Shown in pieces: positions 34,905-63,822 of a DNA stretch of 64,000 bases. Both the position numbers and the translations under genes were made by a program. Origin of the DNA: Alphaproteobacteria bacterium (GTDB taxonomy: Bacteria; Pseudomonadota; Alphaproteobacteria; CBDDJK01); the NCBI GenBank assembly GCA_045106055.1, contig JBGCED010000025.1, forward strand, positions 1,835 through 65,834. The letters are read 5' to 3'. The number at the start of each line of letters is the position of its first letter. Position 1 is the stretch's first letter. The notes below the pieces were generated by a model. It saw only the letters and a list, made by a program, of their open reading frames with translations. It searched no databases and had not been told where the DNA came from.

Positions 34905-35205
34905 CATAAAAAACGCACGGCGTTTAAGCCCGCGACTGCGGGTCGCCAATGGTTTGGCGTAAGCCCGCACGGCGTGTGAGTGCGTAAAAAAATAGCGTGT
35001 TTATTTCAAGCGCACAAGTGTGCGCCATCGCTAGTGCGATGTAAGCCTGCATGGCGTGTGAATGCGTAAAAAAGTTTTAAGCCCGCGACTGCGGGTCGCC
35101 AATAGTTTGGCGTAAGCCTGCACGGCATGTGAGTGCGTAAAAAAACGCACGGCGTGTGAGTGCGTAAAAAAACGCACGGCGTGTGAGTGCATAAAGAGTG
35201 CGCTA
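34905..35205. repeat. REP-like repeat block: a roughly 68-bp unit (ttaagcccgcgactgcgggtcgccaatggtttggcgtaagcccgcacggcgtgtgagtgcgtaaaaaa) at 34925-34992 and 35077-35145; a 27-bp unit acgcacggcgtgtgagtgcgtaaaaaa repeated in tandem at 35146-35199; and the perfect palindrome gcgcacaagtgtgcgc at 35010-35025
   Basis: Seen directly in the sequence. It shares the core ggcgtgtgag(c/t)gcgtaa with the 8.4-kb block in the opposite orientation, and both carry a GC hairpin with a 4-nt actg/gact loop. Confidence 0.85.
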
Positions 35206-36846
35206 TAAATTAGCAGCGGCAATTAATGTTTTTGTGTAAGCATGTCGGGGCTGGGTTAGAATTTGCTGTGCAGCGCCAATTTCAACACATTTTCCATGCT
35301 GCATCACCATAATATCATCCGCCATGGCGCGAATAACTGCAATATCATGGCTGACAATCATATAGGTTAAATCATGTTTTTGCTGTATATCCAGCAATAA
35401 TCTAATCAGTTTAAGCTGGGTTTTGACATCCATTGCCGAAGTTGGCTCGTCTAAAATCATAAATTTAGGTCTTAAAACAAGCCCGCGTGCAATCGCAATC
35501 CGTTGACGCTGCCCGCCTGAAAATTCATGGGGATAGCGATATTGCATATTAGGATCAAGCCCAACTTCTTGTAAAATTTCCGATACGCAGTCGCTTTGGG
35601 CTTGCGGCGATAAATGCGGTTGATGCAGCACCAGCCCCTCCAAAATAATTTGTGCGATGGTCATGCGCGGGCTTAAACTGCCATAAGGGTCTTGAAAAAT
35701 TTGCTGCATGTCTTTTCGCAAATTGCGCAAAGATTTACCGCCAAGATTCGTGATATTTTGACCATCAAATAGGATATTGCCTTCTGCTTGAATTAATTTC
35801 AAAATGGCAAGGCTTAGGCTGGTTTTGCCAGATCCAGATTCGCCAACAACCCCAAGCGTATGCCCGCGTTTGATTGAGATGTGAATATCATCAAGCGCCT
35901 TAATGCTGGTAAGCGGTTTTCCAAACAAAGCGCGCTTCAGCACATAGCTTAAACTTAAATGCTGCGTTTCCACCATTGGCGGCGAATGCTGCATTGTGCC
36001 TTGATCTAATGGGGCTGGGGAGTGGCGCGGGGGCGGGGTTGAGTTTAACAATTCCTTGCTATAGGCATGGATGGGCTTTGCGAAAAAATCGGCGCAAGAT
36101 TGCGCTTCAATCAGCTTTCCTTGCTGCATGACCAGCACATGATCCGCCAATTTGCGCACCAATTTAAGATCATGGGTAATAAACAGCATTGATAGGTTCA
36201 TTTGCCGCTTTAAATCTGCCAATAGATCAAGAATTTGGGCTTGGGTGGTGACATCAAGCGCGGTTGTTGGCTCGTCTGCGATTAATAAATCGGGTTTATT
36301 GGCAAGCGCCATTGCGATCATAATCCGTTGCCGCTGCCCGCCAGAAAGCTGATGGGGATAGGATAGATAACGATCTTGGGGATGATCAATCCCGACCTGT
36401 TCCATCAGCGCAATCACACGCTGTTTGATTTTTGCAGCGGGCAGCTTGTTATGAATGGAAATGGCTTCGGCAATTTGCTTGCCTACACGATGAAGCGGAT
36501 TAAGCGAGGTCATGGGTTCTTGAAAAATCATCGCCATGCGATTTCCGCGCAAATGGCGAACCGCCGCGCTTGATCCAGGATAAAGCGTTTGATCTGCAAA
36601 TTTTATCTGCCCCGCCGCCATTTCAACGCCGCTTCCCCCAAGCAATCGCATAATGGCAAGCGCGGTTAAGGATTTTCCAGACCCTGATTCGCCAACCAAG
36701 GCAACGGTTTGCCCCGCTTCAATCTTAAAGCCAATATGATCCACCAGCATGGTTTCATTTGCTTTTAAGGTCAAATCTTGAACATCAAGCGTGATATTGG
36801 CGGGCGGGGAAATAGGGTTTTTGATCATAATATCAAATCTTACCAT
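35203..36846 (-). CDS. yejF: ABC transporter ATPase with two fused NBDs (YejF/DppDF-like)
   Basis: Two Walker A sites (GESGSGKS x2) and two LSGGQRQR signatures in a 547-aa protein. Confidence 0.85.
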   Translation of the reverse strand: MVRFDIMIKNPISPPANITLDVQDLTLKANETMLVDHIGFKIEAGQTVALVGESGSGKSLTALAIMRLLGGSGVEMAAGQIKFADQTLYPGSSAAVRHLRGNRMAMIFQEPMTSLNPLHRVGKQIAEAISIHNKLPAAKIKQRVIALMEQVGIDHPQDRYLSYPHQLSGGQRQRIMIAMALANKPDLLIADEPTTALDVTTQAQILDLLADLKRQMNLSMLFITHDLKLVRKLADHVLVMQQGKLIEAQSCADFFAKPIHAYSKELLNSTPPPRHSPAPLDQGTMQHSPPMVETQHLSLSYVLKRALFGKPLTSIKALDDIHISIKRGHTLGVVGESGSGKTSLSLAILKLIQAEGNILFDGQNITNLGGKSLRNLRKDMQQIFQDPYGSLSPRMTIAQIILEGLVLHQPHLSPQAQSDCVSEILQEVGLDPNMQYRYPHEFSGGQRQRIAIARGLVLRPKFMILDEPTSAMDVKTQLKLIRLLLDIQQKHDLTYMIVSHDIAVIRAMADDIMVMQHGKCVEIGAAQQILTQPRHAYTKTLIAAANL

Positions 36847-37923
36847 TTAGCTTTCAAAATTTTGACGGTGATTCTTGCGTGGATCAAACGCATCACGCGT
36901 TGCCTCGCCAACAAAGACCAACAGGGTTAATAGAACAGATATGGCAAAAAAGCCAGAAAGACCAAGCCAAGGCGCAGATAGATTTTCTTTTCCCTGCTTT
37001 AGTAATTCGCCCAAGGATGCAGAGCCTGCGGGCAAGCCAAAGCCAATAAAATCCAAGGCGGTTAAGGTGGTGATGGATGCGGTTGCGATAAAGGGCAGAA
37101 AAGTTAGGCTTGCAACCGATGCATTTGGCAAAATATGCGACCAAATAATGCGGCGATCAGCAATGCCCAATGCCTTGGCAGCGCGCACATAATCAAAATT
37201 ACGCACCCTTAATGTTTCCGCACGCACCAGCCCAACCAACGCAGGCCAGCCCATTAAAATCATCAAGCCAAGCAGCCATGAAAAATTGGGCTGAACAATG
37301 CTGGATAAAATAATCAGCAGATAAAGGGTTGGCAATGCGCCCCATACCTCGATCAAGCGCTGCCCAAATAAATCGGTAAGCCCGCCAAAATAGCCTTGAA
37401 CCACCCCGACCATCAACCCAATGATCGAGCTGAAAAAAGTCAAAGCAAGCCCAAATTGCAGCGATATTTTCATGCCATGAATAAGGCGTGCCGCAACATC
37501 GCGTGCTTGATCGTCGGTGCCAAGCCAATGTTTGCTGTCTGGCGGGGTGGGGGCGGGCGCATCAAGATCAAAAGACGGGCTTATATAACCATAGGGGATG
37601 GGCGGCCATAGCATCCAGCCTTTGGCTTTAATTAAATCTTGGACAAAAGGATCTGTGTAAACCGCTTCGGTTGGAAAATCCCCGCCATAGGCTGTCTCGG
37701 GGATGGATTGATAAATGGGCATATATAATGCACCGTCAAACCAAACCAAAATCGGCTTATCATTTGCAATAAAATCGGCACACATGCTGATGATGAACAA
37801 AAAGCAAAATAGGATAAAGGCGCTAAAGCCAACCTTGTTGCGCCTAAATCGCTGCAAGCGTTTGCGTGTTAGCGGCGTTGGTTGCAGCTGGGTTAGAAAG
37901 CGATGAAGCGCATTTTTCATCAC
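36847..37923 (-). CDS. yejE: ABC transporter permease (DppC/YejE-like)
   Basis: BPD-transporter inner-membrane component, 358 aa, directly upstream of the fused ATPase. Confidence 0.82.
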   Translation of the reverse strand: MMKNALHRFLTQLQPTPLTRKRLQRFRRNKVGFSAFILFCFLFIISMCADFIANDKPILVWFDGALYMPIYQSIPETAYGGDFPTEAVYTDPFVQDLIKAKGWMLWPPIPYGYISPSFDLDAPAPTPPDSKHWLGTDDQARDVAARLIHGMKISLQFGLALTFFSSIIGLMVGVVQGYFGGLTDLFGQRLIEVWGALPTLYLLIILSSIVQPNFSWLLGLMILMGWPALVGLVRAETLRVRNFDYVRAAKALGIADRRIIWSHILPNASVASLTFLPFIATASITTLTALDFIGFGLPAGSASLGELLKQGKENLSAPWLGLSGFFAISVLLTLLVFVGEATRDAFDPRKNHRQNFES

Positions 37924-39041
37924 TGCAATTTCCGTTCAAAATCAATCCGTGGGTCAACCCAAACATAGGTTAAATCGGTCAATAGCCCCAGCACCAGCCC
38001 CATCAAGCTAAAAATATAAAGCGTTGCAAACATGATCGGGTAATCGCGCCCAATCGCCGCTTCAAAGCCAAGCAATCCCAGACCATCCAGCGAAAAAATA
38101 ATCTCGGTTAGCAAGGTGGAGGTGAAAAACATGCCAATAAAGACCGCAGGAAAGCCTGCAATCACAATCAGCATGGCATTGCGAAACACATGGCGGTAAA
38201 GCACCGCTTTTTGATCCAAGCCCTTGGCGCGGGCGGTTTGCACATAATGCTTGCTGATTTCTTCTAAGAAGCTGTTGCGGGTTAGCATGGTTAAGGTCGC
38301 AAAGCCGCCAATAATGATTGAAATAAGCGGCAGGGTTAAATGCCAAAGATAGTCTAAAATCCGTTCATACCAGCCCAAATCATGCCAATTATCCGACACC
38401 AATCCGCGCAGCGGAAACCAGCTGAAATATTCCCCGCCCGCAAATAGGATAATCAATAAAACCGCAAATAGAAAATTGGGAATGGCATAGCCCGTGATGA
38501 TGATGATGCTGGTTGCAAGATCGAATTTTGTACCCATACGCACCGCTTTTGCAATTCCCAGCGGAATAGAGATCAGATAAATCAATAAGGTTGACCATAG
38601 CCCAAGCGATATTGATACAGGCATTTTATCCAGAATGATTGATAAAACGCTGCGATCTTGGTAATAGCTTTCGCCAAAATCAAATTTTGCATAGCTGATA
38701 ATTAAGTCAAAGAATCGTGTATGCAGCGGTTTATCAAACCCATATTGCCGTTCAAGCTGGGCGATATAGTCAGGATCAAGCCCCGATGCTGCGCGGCTGC
38801 TGCTATTGGTGGTGCTATTGGCGGCATTGCCGCTGGGCGCGCTTTCAATGTCGCTGCCGGTGCCGCCCGTTACCCGCCCCAAGGTTCCCCCGCCCATATG
38901 CTGCATCTGGGCAATCATTTGCTCAATCGGGCCGCCTGGAGTTGCCTGCACAATCACAAAATTAATTGCCATGATGACAATCAAAGTGGGAATGATAAAC
39001 AGTAATCTGCGGATAATATAGCGCGTCATATTACCCCGCAT
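37920..39041 (-). CDS. yejB: ABC transporter permease (DppB/YejB-like) with a Gly/Ser/Thr/Asn-rich periplasmic insertion
   Basis: N-terminal …IIRRLLFIIPTLIVI… DppB-type start; its 5' end overlaps the fliP stop. Confidence 0.82.
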   Translation of the reverse strand: MRGNMTRYIIRRLLFIIPTLIVIMAINFVIVQATPGGPIEQMIAQMQHMGGGTLGRVTGGTGSDIESAPSGNAANSTTNSSSRAASGLDPDYIAQLERQYGFDKPLHTRFFDLIISYAKFDFGESYYQDRSVLSIILDKMPVSISLGLWSTLLIYLISIPLGIAKAVRMGTKFDLATSIIIITGYAIPNFLFAVLLIILFAGGEYFSWFPLRGLVSDNWHDLGWYERILDYLWHLTLPLISIIIGGFATLTMLTRNSFLEEISKHYVQTARAKGLDQKAVLYRHVFRNAMLIVIAGFPAVFIGMFFTSTLLTEIIFSLDGLGLLGFEAAIGRDYPIMFATLYIFSLMGLVLGLLTDLTYVWVDPRIDFERKLQ

Positions 39042-39819
39042 TGAACCCTTTAATCAAAGACCCAACCACCATATACCAGCCATCAATTAACACAAAGAAA
39101 ATCAATTTGAACGGCAGCGCAATCATCACAGGGGGCAGCATCATCATCCCCAGCGACATTAATACGGATGCGACCACCATATCAATCACCAGAAAGGGAA
39201 TAAATAATAAAAACCCAATTTCAAAGGCGCGCTTTAATTCCGAAATCATAAAGGCGGGAATCAGCGCACGCAGCGGCGTTTCATCTGGATTTGCGATCAG
39301 ATCAATGCCCGCAATGTCTAAGAATAGCCGCAAATCAGTAGGGCGAACATTGGCAAGCATGAAGCTTCGAAAGGGGGCGATGGAGCGTTCAAACGCTTCC
39401 ATTTCATCAATTTCTTCATTAATTAAGGGGGTAATGCCGTCATTCCACGCGGTTTCCAAGGCGGGCTGCATGATGAAAAAAGTCATAAATAGCGCAAGCG
39501 AGATTAATACGGAATTGGGCGGTGATTGCTGAATGCCAATCGCGGTGCGCAGCAAGGAAAACACAATCACAAAGCGCGTGAAAGAGGTAATCATCACCAA
39601 AATAGACGGCGCAAGCGATAAAACCGTTAGCAACGCAATCATTTGAACAATGCGCCCCGTTACCGTTCCGCCTTCGCCAAGATCAAAGGTCACGGCTTGC
39701 GCAAAGGCTGCCATGCCTTGGATTTTATCCGATAGCAATAAAATCATCAAACCCAATATAAAGCCCCCAGCGCCATATATTAAATGACGGGCAATGCGTT
39801 TATGGGCGTTTATCTTCAT
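39031..39819 (-). CDS. fliP: flagellar export apparatus protein FliP
   Basis: …ITSFTRFVIVFSLLRTAIGIQQSPPNSVL…LALFMTFFIMQP… signature. Confidence 0.88.
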   Translation of the reverse strand: MKINAHKRIARHLIYGAGGFILGLMILLLSDKIQGMAAFAQAVTFDLGEGGTVTGRIVQMIALLTVLSLAPSILVMITSFTRFVIVFSLLRTAIGIQQSPPNSVLISLALFMTFFIMQPALETAWNDGITPLINEEIDEMEAFERSIAPFRSFMLANVRPTDLRLFLDIAGIDLIANPDETPLRALIPAFMISELKRAFEIGFLLFIPFLVIDMVVASVLMSLGMMMLPPVMIALPFKLIFFVLIDGWYMVVGSLIKGFNAG

Positions 39820-46602: not shown

Positions 46603-47328
46603 GTGACTTATCAGGATAAAATTAAGCATATTGCCTTTATCATGGATGGCAATGGGCGCTGGGCAAAGCAGCGCGGAAAGCCGCGTATTGAGGGGCATAG
46701 AAAAGGCGCAGCTGCGCTTCGCGGCGTGATTGAAGCCGCTGCCGATTTATCCATCCCATTTGTAACTTTCTTTGGCTTTTCAACCGAAAATTGGCAACGC
46801 CCCCCCCAAGAAGTACAGGATTTAATGGGGCTATTGCGGCAGTATTTGATGTATGAGGTAAATGCGTTTCATAAGGCGGGGGCAAAATTAATTATCATTG
46901 GTCAGCGTGATCGCTTTTCAGCCGATTTGATTGAATTAATTGAAAAGGCAGAGACAAAAACAAAAGATAATGATAAAATCACCGTGGTGATTGCTTTGAA
47001 TTATGGCGCGCGCGCTGAATTGCTGCATGCCGCAAAAGAAATTTGCAAGCAAGCCGTTGCGGGTGATATAAGCATGGATGATCTTCAAGAGCAGGATATT
47101 TCCAATCTGTTATGGACAAGGGATATTCCAGATCCTGATTTGCTGATCCGAACCAGCGGCGAGCAACGGATTAGCAATTTTTTATTATGGCAGCTTGCCT
47201 ATAGCGAATTATTATTTATGGATTGCCTATGGCCCGATTTCAGCAAAGCGCATTTACAAACTGCGATGGATGAATTTTATCGCCGCAATCGCCGCTTTGG
47301 ACTTGTTGAAGAAAACCCGCCTGCTTAA
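46603..47328 (+). CDS. uppS: isoprenyl transferase (undecaprenyl-diphosphate synthase)
   Basis: HIAFIMDGNGRWA and the …FSTENW.R… motif. Confidence 0.9.
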   Translation: MTYQDKIKHIAFIMDGNGRWAKQRGKPRIEGHRKGAAALRGVIEAAADLSIPFVTFFGFSTENWQRPPQEVQDLMGLLRQYLMYEVNAFHKAGAKLIIIGQRDRFSADLIELIEKAETKTKDNDKITVVIALNYGARAELLHAAKEICKQAVAGDISMDDLQEQDISNLLWTRDIPDPDLLIRTSGEQRISNFLLWQLAYSELLFMDCLWPDFSKAHLQTAMDEFYRRNRRFGLVEENPPA

Positions 47329-47363: not shown

Positions 47364-47786
47364 ATGATGAAAGATCAACAAACCCATTTTGCAGCCCAGC
47401 GTTCACACCGCCAGCTTAAAGTTGGTGAGGAAATACGCCATATTGTCTCTTCGTTATTTGCGCGCGGGGAATTGGCCGATCCTGCGCTTTTTGGTAAATC
47501 CTTGACGATTACCGAGGTTAAGATCAGCCCCGATCTTAAAAATGCCACCATATTTTATGTGCCATTGCTGGCGGTCAATTTTGATGCGGAAGGATTGGTG
47601 GTCATTCAAAAAGGACTTGAAAAAGTAGAGCCCTTTATTAAACGGCACATTGCAGCAAGTTTGAAAATTAGAGTGACCCCAAAATTGAAATTTAGCTATG
47701 ATCGCACTTTTGACAATATTGATGCGGTCGGTAAATTATTGAGCCACCCACGGGTTCAGGCAGATTTAACCCCACCAACAAAATAA
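47364..47786 (+). CDS. rbfA: ribosome-binding factor A
   Basis: A 140-aa KH-like fold (…RQLKVGEEIRHIVSSLF…TITEVKISPDLKNATIFY…). Confidence 0.75.
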   Translation: MMKDQQTHFAAQRSHRQLKVGEEIRHIVSSLFARGELADPALFGKSLTITEVKISPDLKNATIFYVPLLAVNFDAEGLVVIQKGLEKVEPFIKRHIAASLKIRVTPKLKFSYDRTFDNIDAVGKLLSHPRVQADLTPPTK

Positions 47787-47794
47787 TATTTTCA

Positions 47795-48754
47795 ATGAAT
47801 GATCTGCTTAAAATTCTTTCAAAATCTTTAAAGCCCTTTGGCTATCATATTGCCAGACATTCCGCCCCTGCTTTATTAAAAATTAAAAATATTGAAGCTG
47901 GGCAAGATGGCGAGCAATCGATCCTGTTTCCGCGTCACTATTTTGATGGATGCGTCTTTGACCCGCCCAGCGCGCTTGATCTTAATCATTTGAAAATTTA
48001 TTTGCGCAGCTGCATGCGCGATCACCGCAATGTGAATAAGAAAATGCGCGTTAGCGGAGATAGCGAAAATGACACGCTGCTTGCTTGTATTGCATCCTTG
48101 GTTGCTGCCGTGAATTATCTTGATCAGCAAAATCCCGCATTATCAATCGATGTGATATGTCTTGATGATCGTTCGGATGCAGGCAATCTGGCGCGCATTG
48201 ACCATATATTATCAGGGCTGAATTGCCCATGGCACATTAAGCAAACGGCGATCAGCGGGCAAGGAAAATCCCTGCATGAGCAATTTTCGCTGGCGCGCCA
48301 AGAAAAAGGGCTGTGTTATTTCATTGAAGATGATTATTTGCATGAAGTGCAGGGGATTGACAGATTATACCAATTTTACTTGAAAATCATAAATGATTTC
48401 AATGCCCATTGTGTGCTTTATACGCAAGAAAGCGATAATATTTACCATGAAGCCTATCCCTCTTATTTGTTAAAGGGGCAAGATTGCAGATGGCGCACCG
48501 TTCGCCACGCAACCCATAGTTTTTTTATCCATAGCCATTATGTCGATCATTTTTGGAAATATTTTGAAAATACAAAATATGTCGGCGTGAAGTCAAAACG
48601 GCGTGCAGGATCAGAGCGCAACACCACCAATAAATTATTCTTGCATATGCCAGGCTTCGTCCCCTTGACCCCCGCAGCCGTTCATTTGCAATTTCAAGAA
48701 ACATTGCCCCCGTTTTATGATTGGCAAGTGCTTTACAAGCTCTATCAGCAATAA
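47795..48754 (+). CDS. GT2-like glycosyltransferase with an N-terminal roughly 80-aa extension
   Basis: GT-A signature segments …LSIDVICLDDRSDAGN… (DDxSxD-like) and …CYFIEDDYL… (DxD). Confidence 0.5.
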   Translation: MNDLLKILSKSLKPFGYHIARHSAPALLKIKNIEAGQDGEQSILFPRHYFDGCVFDPPSALDLNHLKIYLRSCMRDHRNVNKKMRVSGDSENDTLLACIASLVAAVNYLDQQNPALSIDVICLDDRSDAGNLARIDHILSGLNCPWHIKQTAISGQGKSLHEQFSLARQEKGLCYFIEDDYLHEVQGIDRLYQFYLKIINDFNAHCVLYTQESDNIYHEAYPSYLLKGQDCRWRTVRHATHSFFIHSHYVDHFWKYFENTKYVGVKSKRRAGSERNTTNKLFLHMPGFVPLTPAAVHLQFQETLPPFYDWQVLYKLYQQ

Positions 48755-49289: not shown

Positions 49290-49916
49290 ATGAAACACAG
49301 CATGAAAAACAACATGAAAAACAGTATCACTTTAACCCATTCCCCCAAAACAGCTATTTCCCCCAAAACAGGTCAGGCCTTGAAAGCAATGATGCTTGCG
49401 GGGATTATGATTGGCAGCACCGCCTGCATGACTTTTGATGGCGGCAGCACCGCAGAAGGCATTGGATACCGCCAAGCGCGCTTTGCAGAAATGTCTGCGA
49501 TGAATGAATTTCGGGCATGCAAAGCAGATGGGCTTGCACTTGATGAGCAAGCAAGGCTGGATGCTTCTGGTGCAAAATATCTTGCCAGTGCTAAGATTCT
49601 TGAACAATGCGAAGCCAGTGTTGGCAGCGTTGATCAAACCATCGGCAGTGATGAACGGATGCGGGTCTATGCCTTATCCATTCAAAATTATGTAAAAGGC
49701 GGCGATATTGCAAAGGCAGCGGATAGTTTAAATCAATTCCAATCTGCTTTTCCAAATAAGGATTTATATTATGCGGATGGATCGTCTTTTATTGAAACAA
49801 TGCTGGTGATCACCCATCAAAAAGAGGATGCAAATTTCTCGGTCGCTTCAACCTTAAATGTGCCGCGCGCTTTGAAAATTGAAAAAAACCGCATTGCGCA
49901 TTGGGAAATTCATTAA
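49290..49916 (+). CDS. hypothetical exported protein, possibly a lipoprotein
   Basis: Hydrophobic …MMLAGIMIGSTAC… signal-like segment followed by a hydrophilic domain; no family recognised. Confidence 0.45.
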   Translation: MKHSMKNNMKNSITLTHSPKTAISPKTGQALKAMMLAGIMIGSTACMTFDGGSTAEGIGYRQARFAEMSAMNEFRACKADGLALDEQARLDASGAKYLASAKILEQCEASVGSVDQTIGSDERMRVYALSIQNYVKGGDIAKAADSLNQFQSAFPNKDLYYADGSSFIETMLVITHQKEDANFSVASTLNVPRALKIEKNRIAHWEIH

Positions 49917-49943
49917 TTTTTTCAAACATCATATCATTCTTGA

Positions 49944-50846
49944 TTGAGAGGAGTAATTATCATGTTAAAGAAAACGCTAATCGCGGGCGGTTTTGCCCTT
50001 TTTCTATCGGCAGCAAGCGCGCCCAGCTTTGCAAATAATACCGCAGGATCACAAGCAATATGGCAGCCAAGCGCAAGCGAGATGCTGGTGAAAATGCCAA
50101 CAGCCAGCATGCAAAAAAAGATTGAACGGGACTTTAGAAGTTCCCCGCTTGCAAGTGCGCTTCAGCAAAGCAATGTTGATTTGGGCTTAAAGCAGCAAAC
50201 GCTGGAAAGTTTAAATCAAACCCTGACCCAAACCCAAGGCGAGATGAATGTTGAGGTGCGCCATCAAATTTTAAGCCAAAAACGCGATTATTTAACCATG
50301 GTTGGCGGGCGCAACACGATGCGCAAACAAGCAGCAGAAACCAGAATCACCCTATATCGCGATTTACTGGAGAAAATGCAGATTGAAAAGCGCGGATTAA
50401 CGCCCGAAAAACAAGCCTTGATTGCCAAGCAAGAAGCAGCGCGCGCCCGCGCACAGCAAAATTATGATCTGGTTGAAACGGCTATCTTTAGCGATGGACC
50501 AGGCAAAAACAGCAAATATAATCAGGATTATAATAAAAATCAGGCTTTGATTGAACAGCTGATCGCCAAAGTCGGTCAGCATAAGGCAAATCAAAGCGCG
50601 ATGCTTGACGGCGAAGCTTTGTCAAAACAGGATTATTTAAGACAATTAATCGCAGATACCGAAGCCGATATTGCGCTTGTTGATCAGGAAAACCAAATTT
50701 TGGGGCTAATGTCAAAATTGGTTGCTTTGGATGCGATGGCATTATCCGAAGAAGTTGCAGATGCCCAAGATATGGAAGCAGGCATTGACCCAGAAGCAGC
50801 AAAAAACCCGCTGCATAATGTCGCCAATCTGTTCATTGGGGGATGA
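49944..50846 (+). CDS. hypothetical secreted Gln/Ala-rich coiled-coil protein
   Basis: Signal peptide MLKKTLIAGGFALFLSAASAPSFA (probable start at 49962), then Q-rich heptad-like sequence. Confidence 0.45.
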   Translation: MRGVIIMLKKTLIAGGFALFLSAASAPSFANNTAGSQAIWQPSASEMLVKMPTASMQKKIERDFRSSPLASALQQSNVDLGLKQQTLESLNQTLTQTQGEMNVEVRHQILSQKRDYLTMVGGRNTMRKQAAETRITLYRDLLEKMQIEKRGLTPEKQALIAKQEAARARAQQNYDLVETAIFSDGPGKNSKYNQDYNKNQALIEQLIAKVGQHKANQSAMLDGEALSKQDYLRQLIADTEADIALVDQENQILGLMSKLVALDAMALSEEVADAQDMEAGIDPEAAKNPLHNVANLFIGG

Positions 50847-50968
50847 TGAAACAGCAAAGCGGGATATAAGCATTTATCCAAGCCGAATCGGATGTTATTC
50901 TGTGAAGAGAGAAAAGACTAAAAAACAAATTTCATTATTAACCTTATGATCAATGTGAGTTTTCGGCC

Positions 50969-51370
50969 ATGATTACGCCAAAAAGTTCGCCAGCAAAGCT
51001 GCAATCCACATCTTCTAATCTACAGAATTTGTTGAATGATCTTAGCAAAATCTCAACTTCGGATTCAAAAGGAAACTCGAAGCAGGCGGAATTGACGCGT
51101 GATCCTGTTGGGCGCGATGATCCAAGAAATATTGATGAAGGAAATATGAATGCTGGCGGGGCGATGGCGCATCACTTGGAGTCGCGCATTGACCCTAATC
51201 AGGAATATATTCGCCCATCCTTTTCAAGATTTTTTGGCCGCAATGCCCCTGATCCTTTTAATCTTGCCTATGCCCTAGAGCGATTAAGCGGATTATTGCG
51301 CCAAGATGGCAATAATGGCCCGCGCCAAAATGTGCCAGCCAAAGGCTTTTATTTGAATGTTGTTTTGTGA
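50969..51370 (+). CDS. hypothetical hydrophilic protein (candidate partner of the downstream Panacea-like gene); an alternative start at the internal MNAGG with an AAGGA Shine-Dalgarno would give about 74 aa
   Basis: The ORF ends 27 nt before the next gene, and a GGGTGGGG Shine-Dalgarno for the downstream gene sits within that gap. No family recognised. Confidence 0.35.
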   Translation: MITPKSSPAKLQSTSSNLQNLLNDLSKISTSDSKGNSKQAELTRDPVGRDDPRNIDEGNMNAGGAMAHHLESRIDPNQEYIRPSFSRFFGRNAPDPFNLAYALERLSGLLRQDGNNGPRQNVPAKGFYLNVVL

Positions 51371-51397
51371 TTCTTAAAAGCGGGTGGGGTTTAAAAA

Positions 51398-51907
51398 ATG
51401 CGGCCAGCGGTTGATAATACATTGATGATTGCCTTGTGGCTTGAAGATCGCGCACGGGAAGATCAGGTGCGGTTAAGCCCGCAGCATCTTCATCAATTAT
51501 TATATTTGCTGCAAACGATCTATGCGCTGGATTTTAAGGGTCAAATGCTGATGCCAGCCCAGTTTGTTGCCTTTAAAGACGGGGTGCGCGAACCAACCCT
51601 TTATGCCGTGATGAGCGAATTGAATTTTTTTGATGATCCGCTGCCATTGCCAGCGCAGATATTGCAATTTTTGGAACAGTTTTGGGCAAAATTTAACGAA
51701 AAATCCGAAGCGATGCTGATCAAAGAAATTAAGAAACACCCCCCCTATGATCAGGCAATATCCAAAGGCACAGGCGCGTTAATTGCTTTTGAAGAAATTG
51801 CAGAACATGCCCGCCAGCATAAAATATCAACCCATGTTAAGGTTGCAGATGGTCGCAAATTGCCGCGCTGGACACCTGAACGCCATCTTGCTGCCGCAAA
51901 ATCCTAA
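51398..51907 (+). CDS. DUF4065/Panacea-domain-like protein (SocA/GepA family, putative antitoxin)
   Basis: N-terminal …NTLMIALWLEDRAREDQVRLSPQHLHQLLYLLQTIYALDFKGQMLMPAQFVAFKDGVREPTLYAVMSEL… follows the Panacea pattern (…A.yfL…lt.LKLqKLLYyaQ…L…g.pLf…feAW.hGPV.p.vY…). Confidence 0.45.
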   Translation: MRPAVDNTLMIALWLEDRAREDQVRLSPQHLHQLLYLLQTIYALDFKGQMLMPAQFVAFKDGVREPTLYAVMSELNFFDDPLPLPAQILQFLEQFWAKFNEKSEAMLIKEIKKHPPYDQAISKGTGALIAFEEIAEHARQHKISTHVKVADGRKLPRWTPERHLAAAKS

Positions 51908-55127: not shown

Positions 55128-55955
55128 TCAAGATTTAAGAGGGTTAGTATAAAAAGATATGGGGTCATTGATCCTTAGGGTGATGGGATTTAAATCACCC
55201 ATTTTGGCATCATCCGTTTTTGAAAGCGGGGTGATGAAAACACCGCACGCAATATGACCAAAACCACGGCGCAGGGCAAGCGGGATATTCATATCGCACT
55301 CACCAAGATTTTTTCCTGGCTGCGGATTAACATTTACCGCCGCGCAGCGTTCAATCACAGCCCCAATTTTAAAATCAACATTGCCAATTTTAAGCATTTT
55401 GCCCGTCATTTCCAATTCTTGCCATGGCTTCATGCCAGAAATATACAAATTGCCGCGAAATCTGATGGGATCAATCGGGGCGCGAACTAGCCGCTGTTCC
55501 AAATCCTTAACCGAATCAAGATTAATCAGCGATAGGCGTTCATCTTGGCGGTCATAAAAATGATCTTGCGGGGTTTTTGCTTGAATGATGCTTGGGTTGC
55601 TGCGACTGCCAGAACCCAGAAAGCTGGTTAGGAAATTTTGCAGCAGCATTCGCCCCATCGGATCATTTAATTTTCCTTGGCATAATTTACGCCCTTTGCG
55701 TAAAATTGTCAGATTTTGGCTGGCTTCGTCAAATTCTGTTTGCAGCTGGATTAATTTTGGATCGGTTGACAGATTTAAAAAATGCTGTTTGGTCGCCCAT
55801 GGCGCAGCTTCGCCCTTGATCGGGCTTGCAATATGGGCAAGCGCCCATTGCCGATCACATGGAATGCCGCCATCCGCGTTTAAGGTTATTTCGCTAAGCG
55901 CTTCGCCCATTAACCCTTTTACGGGATAGCGATAAATCTGTTCAAGCGTTATCAT
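55128..55955 (-). CDS. MOSC-domain protein (YcbX-like, without ferredoxin domain)
   Basis: N-terminal MOSC_N beta-barrel motif IYRYPVKG and a C-terminal MOSC domain with a conserved Cys. Confidence 0.75.
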   Translation of the reverse strand: MITLEQIYRYPVKGLMGEALSEITLNADGGIPCDRQWALAHIASPIKGEAAPWATKQHFLNLSTDPKLIQLQTEFDEASQNLTILRKGRKLCQGKLNDPMGRMLLQNFLTSFLGSGSRSNPSIIQAKTPQDHFYDRQDERLSLINLDSVKDLEQRLVRAPIDPIRFRGNLYISGMKPWQELEMTGKMLKIGNVDFKIGAVIERCAAVNVNPQPGKNLGECDMNIPLALRRGFGHIACGVFITPLSKTDDAKMGDLNPITLRINDPISFYTNPLKS

Positions 55956-55969
55956 TGGTTCTTAACATC

Positions 55970-57856
55970 TTATAGCTTTGTGATTGGGGTGCAGGCAGTT
56001 AACAGCCAATTATAATCTTTTATATCAAGCTGATCCTTGTAAAGATCAAGAATGCTTTGGTGATAGCGATTAACCCATGCGCATTCTTCGCTTGATAATA
56101 AGGCTGGATCAATCAGCTTCAAATCATAAGGTGCTTTTGTTAGCTGGATAAATTGCAACATATCCGAATTTGGAACAGGGACAACCATGATTAAATTTTC
56201 AATTCTGATCCCATAATGCCCTTTTCTATATAGGCCAGGTTCATTTGAAACCACCATGCCGCTTTGCAGATGCACTTCATTCGGGCGGGCAGCGGAAATT
56301 CCTTGCGGCCCTTCATGCACATTTAAATAGCTGCCAACGCCGTGCCCAGTGCCGTGGGCATAATCATTGCCGCTGTTCCAGATTGCGCTGCGGGCTAGAA
56401 TGTCAAGCTGGCTTCCCTTGGTTGTGTTGGGAAATTTCTGGCGCGCAATCGCGATATGCCCTTTTAATACCAAAGTATAATCTGTGATCATCGCATTGCT
56501 GGGTGTGCCAATCGCGATGGTGCGGGTAACATCGGTCGTGCCGTCCAAATATTGACCACCAGAATCAAGCAGCAATAATTCACCATCTTGAAGGGTGCGG
56601 TTGCTGTTTTGATTTGCACGATAATGCACAATCGCACCATGCGCGCCAGAACCTGCAATGGTGTCAAAGCTGTTTCCTTGAAATAAGGGCTGTTTTTGCC
56701 TTAATTGATATAGAAAATCGGTCAATTCCAATTCATCAGGCAAATTATTTGCTAGGCTGCGCTCTTTAAGCCAGTGCATGAATTGAATAAGCGCCATGCC
56801 ATCATGCTTATGGGCATTGATCATGCCCTGCTGTTCTTTTTCATGCTTTGTTGCGCGCGGCACAAGGATCAAATCATCGCCATAAAGGATATCTGTTTGT
56901 TTATGCGCGGATAATGCTTGGGAAATTGCATCAGAAGCCGTGGTCGGGTCAAGGAATATTCGAATTTTCTTAGATGTTTCTGGCGCGCCAAATAAGGCAT
57001 CTAGCTGTGCTTGAAATTGATCAATATCCATGATTGAAACGCATTCAGGCAGCAAGCTTTGATCAAATCCAGTTAATTTTTCAGGCGCAATGAACCAGCA
57101 AAGCGCGCCCGTAGCCGACAGAATTCCGCGCGATAAGGCAAGCGGGCAGTTTGGCACATCATCGCCGCGAATATTAAGCAGCCATGCAAGCTGGTCTGGC
57201 GCATTGATGATCGTATAATCCGCATTTTTCTTGCCCAGCAGCAAAGTGATTTGCGTTATTTTTTCATCTGCGCTGCGCCCTGCATAGCGCAAGGGCTGTG
57301 ATTTTACGCGCCCAAGCGGCGGGGCAGGGCGGTTTTCCTGCCAAATATGATCAATCGGATTGCTTGTTAAGGGGGTAAGCTTGCCGCCCGCCTTTTCAAT
57401 TAAGTCCTTTAATTTTCGCGCAGTTCCAATGCTAAACAGCCATGGATCATAGCCAATGACGGCTTTGGGGGAGAATTTTTTACGGATAAAATCTTCAATT
57501 GCTTCGGGTTTCCACGGCGCGCTTTCCATGATGGCAGGGTCAATTTCAGCCTCTGCTTGAATGTCATAACGCCCATCCACAAACAGGCAGCTTTTTGTAA
57601 GCCCAATGATGGCAAGCCCCGCAGAACCCGTAAAGCCTGTTATAAATTCCAAACGCTCGCTATGGGCAGGGACATATTCGCCCAGAAATTCATCCGAACG
57701 CGATAGGATAAATCCATCAATTTGCTGCTGTTTTAAGTGTTCGCGCAGGGCATTGATGGCATTAAAAGATAAAGACTGATTGGACGCATTTGCTTGATCC
57801 TGCATGATCAGCGCATCCGTTTTTTGGTTTTGGCTTCCCAATAATTGCCAAGCCAT
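55970..57856 (-). CDS. M24B Xaa-Pro aminopeptidase, three-domain form
   Basis: HGTGHGVGSYLNVHEGP and …SNEPG.Y… pita-bread motifs; 628 aa. Confidence 0.82.
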   Translation of the reverse strand: MAWQLLGSQNQKTDALIMQDQANASNQSLSFNAINALREHLKQQQIDGFILSRSDEFLGEYVPAHSERLEFITGFTGSAGLAIIGLTKSCLFVDGRYDIQAEAEIDPAIMESAPWKPEAIEDFIRKKFSPKAVIGYDPWLFSIGTARKLKDLIEKAGGKLTPLTSNPIDHIWQENRPAPPLGRVKSQPLRYAGRSADEKITQITLLLGKKNADYTIINAPDQLAWLLNIRGDDVPNCPLALSRGILSATGALCWFIAPEKLTGFDQSLLPECVSIMDIDQFQAQLDALFGAPETSKKIRIFLDPTTASDAISQALSAHKQTDILYGDDLILVPRATKHEKEQQGMINAHKHDGMALIQFMHWLKERSLANNLPDELELTDFLYQLRQKQPLFQGNSFDTIAGSGAHGAIVHYRANQNSNRTLQDGELLLLDSGGQYLDGTTDVTRTIAIGTPSNAMITDYTLVLKGHIAIARQKFPNTTKGSQLDILARSAIWNSGNDYAHGTGHGVGSYLNVHEGPQGISAARPNEVHLQSGMVVSNEPGLYRKGHYGIRIENLIMVVPVPNSDMLQFIQLTKAPYDLKLIDPALLSSEECAWVNRYHQSILDLYKDQLDIKDYNWLLTACTPITKL

Positions 57857-58569
57857 TGGTCAAATTTTAATTCCAATGTATCTTTTAACACGGCTGGCAT
57901 GAAATAATAAAAGCGCCCTTGATAATTTTGGGGCTGGCTGATGAATTGCCCAAAATGGCTATACATAGAAAGACTATGGTCAATCGCGGTCAAGGCGCGC
58001 TCTGTAAAAAGGGATCTAAGCTCGATTAAACTTGTCTTTTTGCTTGGCGTATAATGATATTTCAATATTTTTGATCCCCATTGCCGTTCTGGTAGGATCA
58101 AATTAATACAGGCTGCCATATTGCTAAAATCACCGTGAAACGCCGCCCAATAGACCGTATCAAGCCCTGAATAATGTTCTGTGTCGGTTGCAACCACATT
58201 AATCACGGACCTTGGCGCAAGATTTAACAGCGGTGCATCAAGCCGCCCAACCCCAAGCGCAATGATAATATCAGGCGCAGCCTTGGTAAGGGCTTCAATG
58301 CCTTCTGGTTGATTGCAGTTTAACAATTTAAGGTGATTGGCAACTTTAAATTCAGGCGTTTCTTTTTTAAACCATAATTTTTGTTCATAAGCAGCAACCT
58401 TATCATCCAAGGCAGCTCTGGTTTGGTAATTCACGCTAATTTGGCGCACTTCTTCGATCAATAGCACCACATTATAATGTTCCGCCAGAAAATTCGCCAT
58501 ATAGATTTGGTGATTTCTTTTGCTTGTTAAAAGCGCAATTCTTAGTTTTTTATTATTTTGATTCATCAT
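57808..58569 (-). CDS. formyltransferase-fold protein (the canonical catalytic His is not evident)
   Basis: …RIALLTSKRNH… Rossmann-like start and …INVVATDTEHYSGLDTVYWAAFHGD…, which resembles the formyltransferase NxHxSLLPxxRG…wA…G block but has Val in place of His. Confidence 0.4.
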   Translation of the reverse strand: MMNQNNKKLRIALLTSKRNHQIYMANFLAEHYNVVLLIEEVRQISVNYQTRAALDDKVAAYEQKLWFKKETPEFKVANHLKLLNCNQPEGIEALTKAAPDIIIALGVGRLDAPLLNLAPRSVINVVATDTEHYSGLDTVYWAAFHGDFSNMAACINLILPERQWGSKILKYHYTPSKKTSLIELRSLFTERALTAIDHSLSMYSHFGQFISQPQNYQGRFYYFMPAVLKDTLELKFDQWLGNYWEAKTKKRMR

Positions 58570-58709
58570 ATCGCGCTTAATAAAGGGTTGCTTCTATGGT
58601 TTTGTGACATATTATTTGGATATAAGTAAAGTATTTAGCACAATATTTGTCAATATATATTTACATAATATATATTAAAAATAGGATTTTAAGAAAGTGA
58701 TTTTTAAGC

Positions 58710-59708
58710 ATGGTTGATTTAACCTTTGTTGAAACGCAGCTGGAGACATTGATTGCTGAAAAAGGAATGAATATCCATAAAAGCAGATTTTTAAAACCCT
58801 TTGCGCTGATGCCGCAAGAAACTCCGCCCTTATTTTTTTATCACACGCCAAAGGCAAGCGGCAATGCGTTGATCGTCGCGATTCAAGGGGCGTATTTGGG
58901 GCATGCGGTATTGCATCATCAAAATGCGGATTTGGCATATAATCGCTTTGATGTTTTAAATGCAGAAAATGCACTGGCGCGTAAGCTTCCCTTTAAATTC
59001 ATTGCGTCCCATTTGCCGTTTGGGGTGCATCATCATTTTAATCATTATGATTATGATTTAATGGCATGTTTGCGCGATCCTGTGACGCGGGTTAAATCGG
59101 CTTATGCCTATGAAATGATGCGTCAGGATTGGACGCCAGAAGCCGATGATTTTCAAGATTATATCAAAGATCCTTCGAATCAAAATATTACAGCATTGCA
59201 ATTTGCAGGCATTGCTTCAAGCAAAGCGCATTTAAGATCAATCAGCGATGATGCTTTATTTGAGCTTGCGCTGGAAAATCTGGATCAATGCCGCTATGTG
59301 CTAACTTCAAAAGACATTCATGCTTTTATTGAATATTTTATCTCGGCGCATGGTCTGCCCAATGTCATATCAACCAGAATGAATGTCACGCTTCCCAAAT
59401 ATATTGCTGATTTTAGCGCATTTGATGATCAAATTGCGGTGCTTAATCAAGTGGATTTAAGGCTGTTTGAACATATATCCAAGCAAGGGAACAGGGAATT
59501 TTTAAAACAGGAAGCGGCATTAGCAATATCGCCCTTTCATCATCCCGCTTTTGCGCTGTGTTTTGACATTCAATCTTCGGTTAAGATGGAGGGCAAGATT
59601 CATTTTGCCCATGAAGATAATCTGGAAGCGGCGCTGTTATCAGGCAATCATTATGATGATTTTCAAAGCTTTTGCCAGCACGAGATTATACCGCGCAACA
59701 AGGCTTGA
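58710..59708 (+). CDS. PAPS-dependent sulfotransferase-family protein
   Basis: 5'-PSB-like FFYHTPKASGNAL and 3'-PB-like LRDPVTRVKSAYAY motifs; 332 aa. Confidence 0.55.
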   Translation: MVDLTFVETQLETLIAEKGMNIHKSRFLKPFALMPQETPPLFFYHTPKASGNALIVAIQGAYLGHAVLHHQNADLAYNRFDVLNAENALARKLPFKFIASHLPFGVHHHFNHYDYDLMACLRDPVTRVKSAYAYEMMRQDWTPEADDFQDYIKDPSNQNITALQFAGIASSKAHLRSISDDALFELALENLDQCRYVLTSKDIHAFIEYFISAHGLPNVISTRMNVTLPKYIADFSAFDDQIAVLNQVDLRLFEHISKQGNREFLKQEAALAISPFHHPAFALCFDIQSSVKMEGKIHFAHEDNLEAALLSGNHYDDFQSFCQHEIIPRNKA

Positions 59709-59714
59709 AGCGCC

Positions 59715-60632
59715 TTAAAATCCCGATTGATTAAGCAAATAAAAGCCAATGGATGTTGCGTCTGATTCGGTGAGCTTGCTGGTGCTGTGATCCACAAATT
59801 CAGCCATGGAGCCACCAAACGCATCACCATCCATTAAAATTCCTGTCTTTAGTGCAAAGGCAATATCATCGGCGGTCCATCCTTGCTGGTTTAAGCTGGA
59901 TTCCTCAATTGAAGGCACTTTTTTGCCGTCCATTCCAATTCCGCCCGCAAGATAAAGATCGGTCTTTTCCCCGCCCAATATGCCGCGCGGTGTATGGCAT
60001 GCCCCGCAATGGCTTACCGCATTCACCAAATAGCGTCCGCGCTGCCATTGATCGATTTCAGCCTGATTAAGGGTGGTTGGCGGTGTGCTGCTGGCGGGCT
60101 GGACATGTTCAAAAAACAAGGTTTTCCACCCGCCTTGCAACATGCGGACAGAAAAGGGGAAAATAACTTCATTCGGCTTGGAGGGAACAGGATGGGCGGT
60201 GCTTGCCATCAGTGCGCCATAAAGATCAACCATATCTTGATCCGACATGAATTGATAATATTGATAAGGCAAAGCAGGGAAATAATGCTGGGATGTTGGC
60301 GAAATGCCTTGCTTCATCGCATTTGCAAATTGCACAATATCCCATTTGCCAATGCCATGATCAACATCGCTTGTGATATTTGGCGTGATAAAATTGCCAA
60401 ATTTGGTGGATAAGATAACCCCGCCCGCTAAATCCAGATCGCTATTTTCAGCCGTATGGCAGCCAGCGCATCCTGCAACATTCAATAAATACGCGCCATT
60501 ATCCAGATTTGGAATTAATTCATGGTAGGCTGCATAATCCTTGGATTGCGGACGCGTAAACCACCCGCCAGCAATTGCCAGCACCATCAAGATTCCAACA
60601 ATAAGCCTTAATTTTATAAATTGCGGGCGCAT
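59715..60632 (-). CDS. dihaem c-type cytochrome, exported
   Basis: Two CxxCH motifs (CAGCHT, CGACHT) and an N-terminal TM/signal; 305 aa. Confidence 0.8.
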   Translation of the reverse strand: MRPQFIKLRLIVGILMVLAIAGGWFTRPQSKDYAAYHELIPNLDNGAYLLNVAGCAGCHTAENSDLDLAGGVILSTKFGNFITPNITSDVDHGIGKWDIVQFANAMKQGISPTSQHYFPALPYQYYQFMSDQDMVDLYGALMASTAHPVPSKPNEVIFPFSVRMLQGGWKTLFFEHVQPASSTPPTTLNQAEIDQWQRGRYLVNAVSHCGACHTPRGILGGEKTDLYLAGGIGMDGKKVPSIEESSLNQQGWTADDIAFALKTGILMDGDAFGGSMAEFVDHSTSKLTESDATSIGFYLLNQSGF

Positions 60633-61208: not shown

Positions 61209-61311
61209 TATTTTTTACCTTTATTTTGATTTTAATTGATATGCTATTTTTTTATCATAGTTTACTTTTGATCATAAATCATCTAAATTTTATGCAATAA
61301 TACACCAAAAT

Positions 61312-62571: not shown

Positions 62572-63822
62572 ATGATTGTAAATCTAACAGGGCAGGAAGC
62601 AACACAAGCACAAGCGATTCAATATGGTGCGATGGAAGGGACAAGCCCGCCCGCTCATCTTGATCAAACCCGCCTTTACAGGCTGGGGCGGGTGCGCGCA
62701 TTATTAGCCGAATTTGATTATGCGGGCATCTTGCTTTATGACCAGCTTAATATTCGCTATGCAACCGATGCGACCAATATGCAATTATGGTGCAGCCATA
62801 ATGAAGCGCGCTATTGCCTGATTTTAACCCAAGGCCCTGTTATTTTATTTGATTATGGCGGCAAGGATTTATTGACAAAAGGCTTGCCCACGATTGATGA
62901 AACCCGCCCTGCGCAAGATTTTTATTATATGTATGCAGGAAATAATCAGGATGAAAAGCTGGCATCATGGGCAGGGGAGATTGATGATTTATTAAAACAA
63001 TATGGGGCGGGCAATAAACGCCTTGCGGTTGACCGAATTGCGCCGATTGGCACGCTGGCACTTGATCGGCGTGGCTATGACATTATGGACGGTTTTACAC
63101 TGATGGAAGAAGCCCGCAAGCTTAAATCAGCAGGCGAACTTGATTTAATGCGCTATGCCATTCATGCAGCCGAAAATGCAATCCAAATGATGCGCCAGCA
63201 TTTAAGCGCGGGCATCACCGAAAATGCGCTATGGGCAAAGCTGCATGAGGGCAATATTGCCCAAGGCGGTGAATGGATTGAAACCCGTTTATTGGCATCA
63301 GGCCCTAGAACCAACCCATGGTTTCAAGAATCTTCAATGCGGCAAATTCAAAAGGGCGATATGGTTGCCTTTGATACTGATATGATTGGTCCTTATGGCT
63401 ATTGTGCGGATATATCGCGCAGCTTTGTGTGCGATTCAAAGCCATCGGATGATCAAAAGCGGCTTTATGCAGAAGCAAATTTACAGCTTGAACATAATAA
63501 AGCCTTGTTAAAGCCAGGCATCAGCCTGCGGGAATTATCATCAAAGCTGCGCATTCCCCCAGATCAGTTTAAGAAAATCCGCTATAGCGTTGCCATGCAC
63601 GGGGTGGGGCTGTGCGATGAATATCCGTTTATCCCCTATTTTGATGATTTTGATGAAAAAGGCTTTGATGCGGTGCTATTGCCTGGCATGTGTTTATGCG
63701 TGGAAGCCTTGGTCGCGCTTGAAGGTAAAGGCGAAGCCGTGAAGCTTGAAGAACAAATCACCATTACCGAAGATGGGTTTGAACAATTATCAAGCCTGCC
63801 GCTTGAAAGCGCGATGCTTTGA
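62572..63822 (+). CDS. M24-family metallohydrolase (creatinase/prolidase/ectoine-hydrolase-like)
   Basis: Creatinase_N-like N-terminal domain and a C-terminal pita-bread fold with …AMHGVGLCDEYP…; 416 aa. Confidence 0.72.
   Translation: MIVNLTGQEATQAQAIQYGAMEGTSPPAHLDQTRLYRLGRVRALLAEFDYAGILLYDQLNIRYATDATNMQLWCSHNEARYCLILTQGPVILFDYGGKDLLTKGLPTIDETRPAQDFYYMYAGNNQDEKLASWAGEIDDLLKQYGAGNKRLAVDRIAPIGTLALDRRGYDIMDGFTLMEEARKLKSAGELDLMRYAIHAAENAIQMMRQHLSAGITENALWAKLHEGNIAQGGEWIETRLLASGPRTNPWFQESSMRQIQKGDMVAFDTDMIGPYGYCADISRSFVCDSKPSDDQKRLYAEANLQLEHNKALLKPGISLRELSSKLRIPPDQFKKIRYSVAMHGVGLCDEYPFIPYFDDFDEKGFDAVLLPGMCLCVEALVALEGKGEAVKLEEQITITEDGFEQLSSLPLESAML

Follow-up and report, generated by a model that had tools for sequence, protein, structure and literature searches.

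A divergent sulfotransferase-like protein and a putative pseudo-formyltransferase encoded back to back in an alphaproteobacterial genome

The described systems closest to the genes considered here are the heparan sulfate sulfotransferases HS2ST (PDB 3F5F/4NDZ) and HS6ST3 (PDB 5T03), together with the Sulfotransfer_2 family, the sugar N-formyltransferases PseJ (PDB 6CI4), WbkC (PDB 5VYR) and the N-terminal domain of ArnA, and the def-fmt gene pair, in which a formyltransferase gene lies beside the gene of an N-terminal peptide-processing metalloenzyme. We analysed a stretch of 64,000 nucleotides from a marine alphaproteobacterium (the window; assembly GCA_045106055.1, contig JBGCED010000025.1, positions 1,835 to 65,834), in which the genes of a 332-residue sulfotransferase-like protein and a 253-residue formyltransferase-like (FT-like) protein lie divergently on either side of an AT-rich spacer. 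In the public annotation of this metagenome-assembled genome both are hypothetical (locus tags AB8B77_01750, AB8B77_01755). We consider it probable, with moderate confidence, that two separate units share this one intergenic region: an active sulfotransferase, and a non-catalytic pseudo-formyltransferase that heads an array with pepP, encoding aminopeptidase P, and the gene of a MOSC-domain protein. An earlier note on this DNA had joined the two genes in a single, horizontally acquired sulfation module. Its placement of both open reading frames (ORFs), the 140-bp AT-rich spacer, the two motifs for binding 3'-phosphoadenosine-5'-phosphosulfate (PAPS) and the Val at the catalytic His position was accurate throughout.

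Both proteins depart from their described relatives. The 332-residue protein is 13-15% identical to HS2ST, HS6ST3 and Sulfotransfer_2. Unlike HS2ST and HS6ST it is bacterial, predicted to be soluble and without a membrane anchor, it carries a C-terminal extension, its phosphosulfate-binding (PSB) loop reads PKASGNA where that class has PKT(G/A)(G/S)T, and its acceptor cannot be heparan sulfate. A set of alphaproteobacterial proteins, P0008-P0021, has the same motifs, but most of them lack the C-terminal extension and none is encoded beside an FT-like or PepP gene. The 253-residue protein differs from PseJ, WbkC and ArnA in that the catalytic Asn, His and Asp and the Arg of the YRG motif are replaced; it lies in a pepP-MOSC context instead of a sugar cluster and has no Pfam match of its own. 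Its position beside pepP is analogous to def-fmt, but the FT-like protein descends from sugar formyltransferases and not from Fmt, it has neither the catalytic residues nor the tRNA-binding C-domain, and PepP is an M24B aminopeptidase and not a deformylase. The genomic association of FT-like, pepP and MOSC genes is previously undescribed.

The sulfotransferase-like protein and its family

The following features of the sulfotransferase gene are referred to below.

58710 to 59708, plus strand: sulfotransferase ORF, 332 residues, apparently monocistronic and convergent with a cytochrome c gene at 59715-60632.
58842 to 58871, plus strand: PSB loop H45-T-P-K48-A-S-G51-N-A-L54 (residues 45-54), in a strand-loop-helix.
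59010 to 59012, plus strand: His101, candidate catalytic base in an SHLPFG motif, placed by alignment.
59073 to 59105, plus strand: 3'-phosphate-binding (3'-PB) motif R122-D-P-V-T-R-V-K-S130-A-Y132 (residues 122-132), in a strand-turn-helix.

The 332-residue protein is probably a PAPS-dependent sulfotransferase, a very divergent member of a rare and unannotated alphaproteobacterial subfamily, as the earlier note had proposed from its two motifs. Direct annotation gives little sign of this. There was no Pfam match above threshold, no match to PF03567 and none in NCBIfam, and the best Pfam score was to Sulfotransfer_1 (PF00685; E=0.11, 12.4 bits against a cutoff of 22). A first search of 5.8 billion clusters returned two relatives, and a third proved to be the divergent neighbour of the FT-like homologue in another locus, L001, with 42% identity. 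A profile built from these four sequences reached 236 proteins. Its first matches were the unannotated and mostly alphaproteobacterial subfamily P0008-P0021, which includes a protein of Varunaivibrio sulfuroxidans, shares its motifs with the 332-residue protein and is 26-38% identical to it over 47-79% of the query length. The same profile then reached proteins of the Sulfotransfer_2 and Gal-3-O-sulfotransferase families (PF03567/PF06990) at E values of 1e-18 to 1e-7, and a PF03567 match was present in 47 of the 55 relatives that we aligned. A profile of these 55 sequences, which already includes bona fide PF03567 members, matched HS6ST3 at 5e-26 and HS2ST at 3e-20, with the Lys, His, Arg and Ser in register. 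A search of PDB sequences with the small profiles gave E values of ~0.15-0.2 at best. The earlier note had named the lack of a sulfotransferase-family HMM match as a refutation; taken alone, the sub-threshold scan would have gone against its finding, but deeper analysis upheld the folds that it had assigned.

The residues expected of a sulfotransferase are conserved. In the alignment of the first three members F42, F43, Y44, H45, P47, K48 and G51 of the PSB region and L121, R122, D123, P124, V125, R127 and S130 of the 3'-PB region were invariant; L121 and V125 vary once the L001 protein joins the alignment. Across the 55 relatives H101, R122, P124 and S130 remain invariant, while H45, P47, K48, G51, D123 and R127 are conserved at 90% or more. 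HTPKASGNAL and RDPVTRVKSAY are thus not chance motifs, since their residues are held invariant in the family alignments. The PSB loop aligns with vPKTAStS of HS2ST and HIqKTGGTT of HS6ST3, and the 3'-PB with RDPIERLVSYY and RDPVSRYLSEW of the same two enzymes. In the alignment His101 falls opposite the catalytic base of HS2ST, His142, which is the second His of its HGH motif.

A confident AlphaFold model has the sulfotransferase fold and matches the heparan sulfate 6-O- and 2-O-sulfotransferases. Within it the PSB lies on a strand (41-45), a loop and a helix (51-68), and the 3'-PB on a strand (116-121), a turn and a helix (124-138). The C-terminal extension of ~70 residues (~262-332), modelled as a beta-hairpin and helices, is otherwise found only in the L001 relative. 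No hydrophobic segment was apparent in the N-terminal sequence, read by eye, so the protein is probably soluble. Set against the defining features of sulfotransferases (PMC11625862), the protein has the PSB Lys and Gly, the PB Arg and Ser, and the catalytic base; the same work offers a reason why bacterial members are missed, in that the Pfam seeds are biased towards glycosaminoglycan enzymes (PMC11625862).

Because Lys48 of the PSB, His101, Arg122 and Ser130 are all conserved, the sulfotransferase is probably active. On the standard mechanism Lys48 would stabilise the leaving phosphate, Arg122 and Ser130 would hold the 3'-phosphate of PAPS, and His101 would deprotonate the acceptor hydroxyl for in-line sulfuryl transfer. 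The class is the carbohydrate type (Sulfotransfer_2) and not the cytosolic SULT type. The earlier note's term cytosolic-type is not supported: by family the protein comes nearest to Sulfotransfer_2 and Gal-3-O-sulfotransferase, and among solved structures to HS6ST and HS2ST instead of the SULTs. Our best guess for the acceptor is a sugar or a glycolipid, judging from the structural relatives and from one distant relative encoded in an amino-sugar/acyl operon.

That relative, P0013 (29% identical; L175 5768-6724), is encoded in an operon in the order DegT, an 80-aa ORF, a short-chain dehydrogenase/reductase (SDR), an AMP-binding protein, LuxE, the sulfotransferase and a PglD-like acetyltransferase. 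The operon suggests sulfation of an acylated amino sugar in its organism and is the sole hint that context provides. Members of the subfamily are mostly lone genes amid housekeeping genes of differing kinds. The relative in Varunaivibrio sulfuroxidans (P0019, hypothetical) lies between a major facilitator superfamily (MFS) pump and dsrC, others lie between hsp20 and aroA-cmk-rpsA, and still others are beside an enolase-superfamily gene. An FT-like or pepP neighbour was present in none of the five contexts of sulfotransferase relatives that we examined.

The FT-like protein and its link to pepP

On the other side of the spacer the FT-like gene opens an array on the minus strand.

57808 to 58569, minus strand: FT-like ORF, 253 residues, formyltransferase fold without catalytic residues, first gene of the FT-like-pepP-MOSC array.
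58165 to 58200, minus strand: degenerate catalytic block N124-V-V126-A-T-D-T-E-H-Y-S134-G, placed by column-by-column alignment.
58081 to 58083, minus strand: Gln163 at the catalytic Asp position, placed by alignment; the sequence here is R-Q-W-G-S-K.
55970 to 57856, minus strand: pepP, three-domain aminopeptidase P (M24B), with Pfam Creatinase_N, Creatinase_N_2, Peptidase_M24 and Peptidase_M24_C.
55128 to 55955, minus strand: MOSC-domain protein (Pfam MOSC_N and MOSC), third gene of the array.

Against the NCBIfam formyltransferase model the 253-residue protein scored 15.7 bits, with a cutoff of 316. A word-indexed search found three relatives with 51-55% identity, and an exhaustive HMMER search with the FT-like profile raised this to 730 family representatives, most of them stand-alone and ~235 aa long. 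Formyl_trans_N (PF00551) was matched by 60 of 63 sampled family members, and the 253-residue protein has the formyltransferase N-domain fold. The family consensus, NLHGGDPExYRGLD[ST]HLWAIYHxDF...TTLH...LDxGxI, contains the canonical Asn-x-His and Asp signature; we presume these residues to be equivalent to N106, H108 and D144 of PurN.

In the window protein the residues required for N10-formyl-tetrahydrofolate-dependent catalysis, Asn-x-His with Asp, are not present as a set. Profile alignment to ArnA lays NLHGS over N-V-V-A-T, so that the catalytic His position is Val126. In the clade formed by the window protein and its three close relatives the Asn-x-His block has become [N/V/Y]-x-[V/Q]-A-T-D, with N/V/Y/N at the Asn position and V or Q at the His position in all four. 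The YRG Arg position is S/T/Y/C (Ser134 in the window protein), the TTLH block has changed to AAC-x-N, and the Asp of the consensus L-D-x-G-x-I is Q/Q/K/Q, with N in P0125. The earlier note was right about a formyltransferase fold without the catalytic His, and Asn, His and Asp were in fact lost together. The 253-residue protein would appear to be a pseudo-formyltransferase that, with Asn, His, Asp and the YRG Arg lost, no longer carries out folate-dependent formyl transfer. Separately, P0126 (L173 629-1372), whose gene is still in a sugar cluster and downstream of one for an N-acetyl-sugar amidotransferase, has TLYAADPE (Asn to Thr, His to Tyr) while YRGLD and TTLH are kept; formyltransferase catalysis may have been lost here a second time, independently.

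The parent family has a consistent genomic setting. We examined 160 loci of the family from species-representative genomes and metagenomes, ~155 of them canonical. NeuB is at -1 in 39 of the canonical loci and Polysacc_deac_1 at +1 in 43, and there are recurrent neighbours, confirmed with Pfam, of the NAD-epimerase/dehydratase, DegT aminotransferase, asparagine-synthase-like, N-acetyl-sugar-amidotransferase-like and CMP-sugar cytidylyltransferase (CTP_transf_3) kinds. This is the signature of nonulosonic-acid (pseudaminic/legionaminic-type) biosynthesis, which makes PseJ-like sugar N-formylation the most likely activity of the ~235-aa parent family. Members of the canonical family (L013-L172), found between NeuB-type and deacetylase genes in many phyla, are labelled 'methionyl-tRNA formyltransferase' (Joint Genome Institute, JGI) or 'hypothetical'; the former label looks like a systematic misannotation.

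The window gene is not in a NeuB/DegT/cytidylyltransferase cluster of this kind but between the sulfotransferase gene and pepP-MOSC. A three-domain aminopeptidase P gene lies directly downstream on the same strand in all four informative degenerate loci (the window, L001, L002 and L012/L013), and MOSC follows PepP in both loci that extend far enough (L012/L013), at 43% identity to the window MOSC protein. No gene for PepP, MOSC or a sulfotransferase-like protein was found within 6 kb in any of the ~155 canonical loci. The divergent upstream neighbour is less constant: the window and L001 have the sulfotransferase there, L002 has a polytopic membrane protein of no relation to it, and L012 has IalB. 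The sulfotransferase is thus next to the FT-like gene in two of the four loci and absent from L002 and L012/L013. The clade is rare, but the trio of sulfotransferase, FT-like and PepP genes recurs in the divergent relative L001 at 42-55% protein identity. What consistently accompanies the FT-like gene is pepP-MOSC and not the sulfotransferase, contrary to the joint module that had been suggested.

In a neighbour-joining tree the PepP-linked FT-like proteins are monophyletic (bootstrap 0.995) on a long stem. They stand beside an alphaproteobacterial canonical group, including Marivibrio, that keeps NLHGADPEKYRGLD...LDRGG and the sugar-cluster context. Peptide patterns specific to the clade matched nothing in 185,579 species-representative genomes or in JGI metagenome contigs, and a broader pattern recovered OZ245892.1 (L013) as the only further PepP-linked species. 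Between the window and L001 the FT-like proteins are 55% identical, PepP 48% and the sulfotransferases 42%; between the window and L002 the values are 53% for FT-like and 48% for PepP. Judged by this identity between lineages, which is at least that of the adjacent PepP, the FT-like gene is not decaying. Since it is conserved as well as its housekeeping neighbours, the FT-like protein most likely persists in a non-catalytic role.

These observations suggest a history in which the 253-aa gene would have derived once, in one alphaproteobacterial lineage, from the ~235-aa sugar N-formyltransferases of nonulosonic-acid clusters. The Asn, His, Asp and YRG Arg would then have been lost and the gene relocated to the head of a pepP-MOSC array. 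The product would serve, without catalysis, to bind a ligand or as a partner of aminopeptidase P, with which it would be co-expressed and probably coupled in translation.

The junction itself depends on the gene model. The 49-nt overlap between the FT-like and pepP genes claimed in the earlier note holds for the longest pepP ORF, with an ATG at 57856; with the start of the public gene calls at 57805 (Met18) it gives way to a 2-nt gap after the FT-like stop. The N-terminus of PepP, when aligned, was too weakly conserved to choose between the two. At the corresponding junctions L001 has a 4-nt ATGA overlap, L012 a 40-nt gap and L002 a 92-nt gap. For the FT-like gene the public call starts at Met24 and gives 230 aa, dropping 58501-58569 on the minus strand. 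Because this call removes an N-terminal beta-strand with an LTTxTxHH motif that is conserved family-wide, the 253-aa ORF would be the better model and we prefer it here. A second M24B peptidase gene (Creatinase_N and Peptidase_M24, 416 aa) is present at 62572-63822 on the plus strand, directly after pgk, so that two Xaa-Pro-type peptidase genes lie less than 7 kb apart in the window.

The shared spacer, base composition and flanks

Between the two genes lies one further feature.

58570 to 58709, no strand: divergent intergenic spacer, 140 bp, 23.6% GC, presumed site of both promoters.

The spacer is indeed AT-rich, as the earlier note had stressed, but it is not unusual: GC falls to 17.5% in a second divergent spacer, at 61209-61311, which separates a cytochrome c' gene from pgk. 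It seems to be typical of this genome that divergent promoter regions are very rich in AT. On both strands of 58570-58709 we counted 9 promoter-like hexamers against 7.2 +/- 2.4 in shuffled sequence, which is no excess. No riboswitch or other RNA element was found there with Rfam at E<=1, a search for operator-like repeats gave just AT-rich low-complexity palindromes, and the motifs shared with the L001 spacer were weakly and unconvincingly conserved.

Base composition was the check proposed for recent import. The two genes of the pair rank lowest in GC among the 59 ORFs (0.404 and 0.412, the mean being 0.461; z -2.8 and -2.4). Their GC at third codon positions (GC3; z -1.5 and -1.8) and codon-usage distance (z +0.7 and -0.1), on the other hand, are ordinary. 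In L001 the values are 0.353 for the sulfotransferase and 0.333 for the FT-like gene, against 0.392 for PepP and 0.457 for Obg, and in L002 0.419 for FT-like against 0.460 for PepP. As the offset recurs in both loci, low GC looks like a property of these genes more than a sign of recent import. The flanks of the pair contain no integrase, transposase or tRNA gene. With ordinary GC3 and codon usage, a GC deficit that recurs in L001 and L002 and no mobility genes, the suggestion of horizontal acquisition gained no support.

The flanks are core chromosome, with a sugar ATP-binding cassette (ABC) transporter, MOSC, pepP, cytochromes c and c' and pgk close by, and rpsB-tsf, uppS, rbfA, atpB, the mraW/dcw region, thrC and dapD farther out. 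Among the ~40 window ORFs scanned there were no glycan genes or clusters. The earlier note had also linked the pair to a 'GT2-like' gene. This is a 319-aa ORF at 47795-48754 on the plus strand, after uppS (46603-47328) and rbfA (47364-47786), with no Pfam match even at E<=0.1, and the rbfA-side ORFs, the sugar ABC transporter, MOSC and pepP intervene; the link is not supported. A defence-system reading was also tried and rejected, with no PADLOC match for the sulfotransferase, FT-like, PepP or MOSC proteins.

Two other features of the window may be recorded. Four consecutive ORFs (208, 300, 133 and 169 aa) at 49290-51907 on the plus strand, between the rbfA region and the sugar ABC transporter, have no significant Pfam match, the first showing a weak, sub-threshold match to Phe_hydrox_dim only. 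On the minus strand fliP (39031-39819) adjoins an oligopeptide-type ABC transporter operon (35203-39041), and no further flagellar genes turned up among the window ORFs scanned.

Competing explanations and meaning

Several observations weigh against two separate units of the kind that we favour. The PSB loop PKASGNA differs from the PKTGGT(T/S) consensus at four positions, and PAPS affinity could therefore be altered. No gene for PAPS supply or sulfate assimilation was found among the ~40 window ORFs scanned. The model of the FT-like protein is of moderate confidence, with a predicted local distance difference test (pLDDT) score of 62, and is low exactly at the degenerate block (residues 128-146). 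The FT-like-PepP sample consists of four independent loci from one lineage, so the linkage may reflect retention by descent and not selection. Finally, the sulfotransferase and FT-like genes have stayed adjacent in two lineages 42-55% identical despite differing outer flanks (cytochrome c beside the sulfotransferase in the window, Obg in L001), which leaves some room for a functional tie.

A more specific version of a role for the FT-like protein is that it founds a pseudoenzyme clade not described before, recruited as a ligand-sensing or scaffolding partner of PepP, and perhaps of the MOSC protein. The N-terminal processing of peptides would thereby be tied to a signal from folate or a nucleotide sugar, with the sulfotransferase in the same regulon in some lineages. 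We put this forward tentatively, as a possibility well short of probable.

Less likely is that the 253-residue protein is an enzyme with new chemistry, acting through Thr128, Asp129, Glu131, His145 and Asp147, for example as a hydrolase or transferase on peptides or N-modified substrates linked to PepP or MOSC. The four clade proteins, 49-55% identical, share ~90 invariant columns and have signatures that are new with respect to the family, AT[DN]xExYxGLDTxYWA and AAC.N; such constraint, as strong as that on PepP, would suit an enzyme. However, Asp129, Glu131, His145 and Asp147 are conserved in the canonical family too, and for this reason are probably structural or ligand-binding residues. 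There is also no obvious new nucleophile or metal site, and the protein resembled no other enzyme family in Pfam, NCBIfam or the PDB.

The joint module of the earlier note seems slightly more doubtful again. Here the dead formyltransferase would keep a nucleotide-amino-sugar or folate pocket and present or sense the substrate of the sulfotransferase, the two having been acquired horizontally for a surface glycan or small molecule. The divergent arrangement over an AT-rich spacer in both the window and L001 is what this idea would predict, and so is the background of the two families, the FT-like ancestor having acted on sugar precursors and the sulfotransferase being of the carbohydrate type. 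The DegT/PglD amino-sugar operon of one sulfotransferase relative, and the fact that the two genes are lowest in GC in the window, point the same way. Yet the sulfotransferase is missing from half of the FT-like-PepP loci, the families are unpaired in the five contexts of sulfotransferase relatives and the ~155 canonical loci, codon usage is unremarkable and the homologous loci show the same GC deficit. No glycan or PAPS genes lie nearby, and the 'GT2-like' ORF has no family match.

It is quite unlikely, in our view, that the 332-residue protein is not an active sulfotransferase but a PAP- or PAPS-binding protein, or a transferase using another donor. The sub-threshold Pfam score, the empty NCBIfam result, the unusual PSB loop and the lack of any sign of PAPS supply in the window would all fit such a protein. 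Set against them, the PSB Lys and Gly, the His base and the PB Arg and Ser are conserved and sit in the correct predicted secondary-structure elements. Least credible of all is that the 253-aa gene is a decaying and functionless relic, upstream of pepP through recent common descent only: all the catalytic residues are gone, the stem branch is long and the clade has only four or five known sequences among billions, but five lineages whose proteins diverge by 45-63% all retain an intact frame, the adjacent PepP is no better conserved than the FT-like protein, and the position and tight pepP junction have been kept while both outer flanks were rearranged.

Neither unit bears on a long-standing open question, and the sulfotransferase is a new, divergent member of a known enzyme class. 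The case does show bacterial enzymes of the Sulfotransfer_2 type escaping Pfam and NCBIfam annotation. It also defines a small alphaproteobacterial subfamily with its catalytic residues intact, in marine Alphaproteobacteria whose sulfated metabolites and glycans are poorly charted. The FT-like clade branches from among active sugar N-formyltransferases and illustrates cleanly how a pseudoenzyme is born. Should the FT-like protein modulate aminopeptidase P, a housekeeping peptidase of wide occurrence, it would represent a new type of partner for that enzyme.

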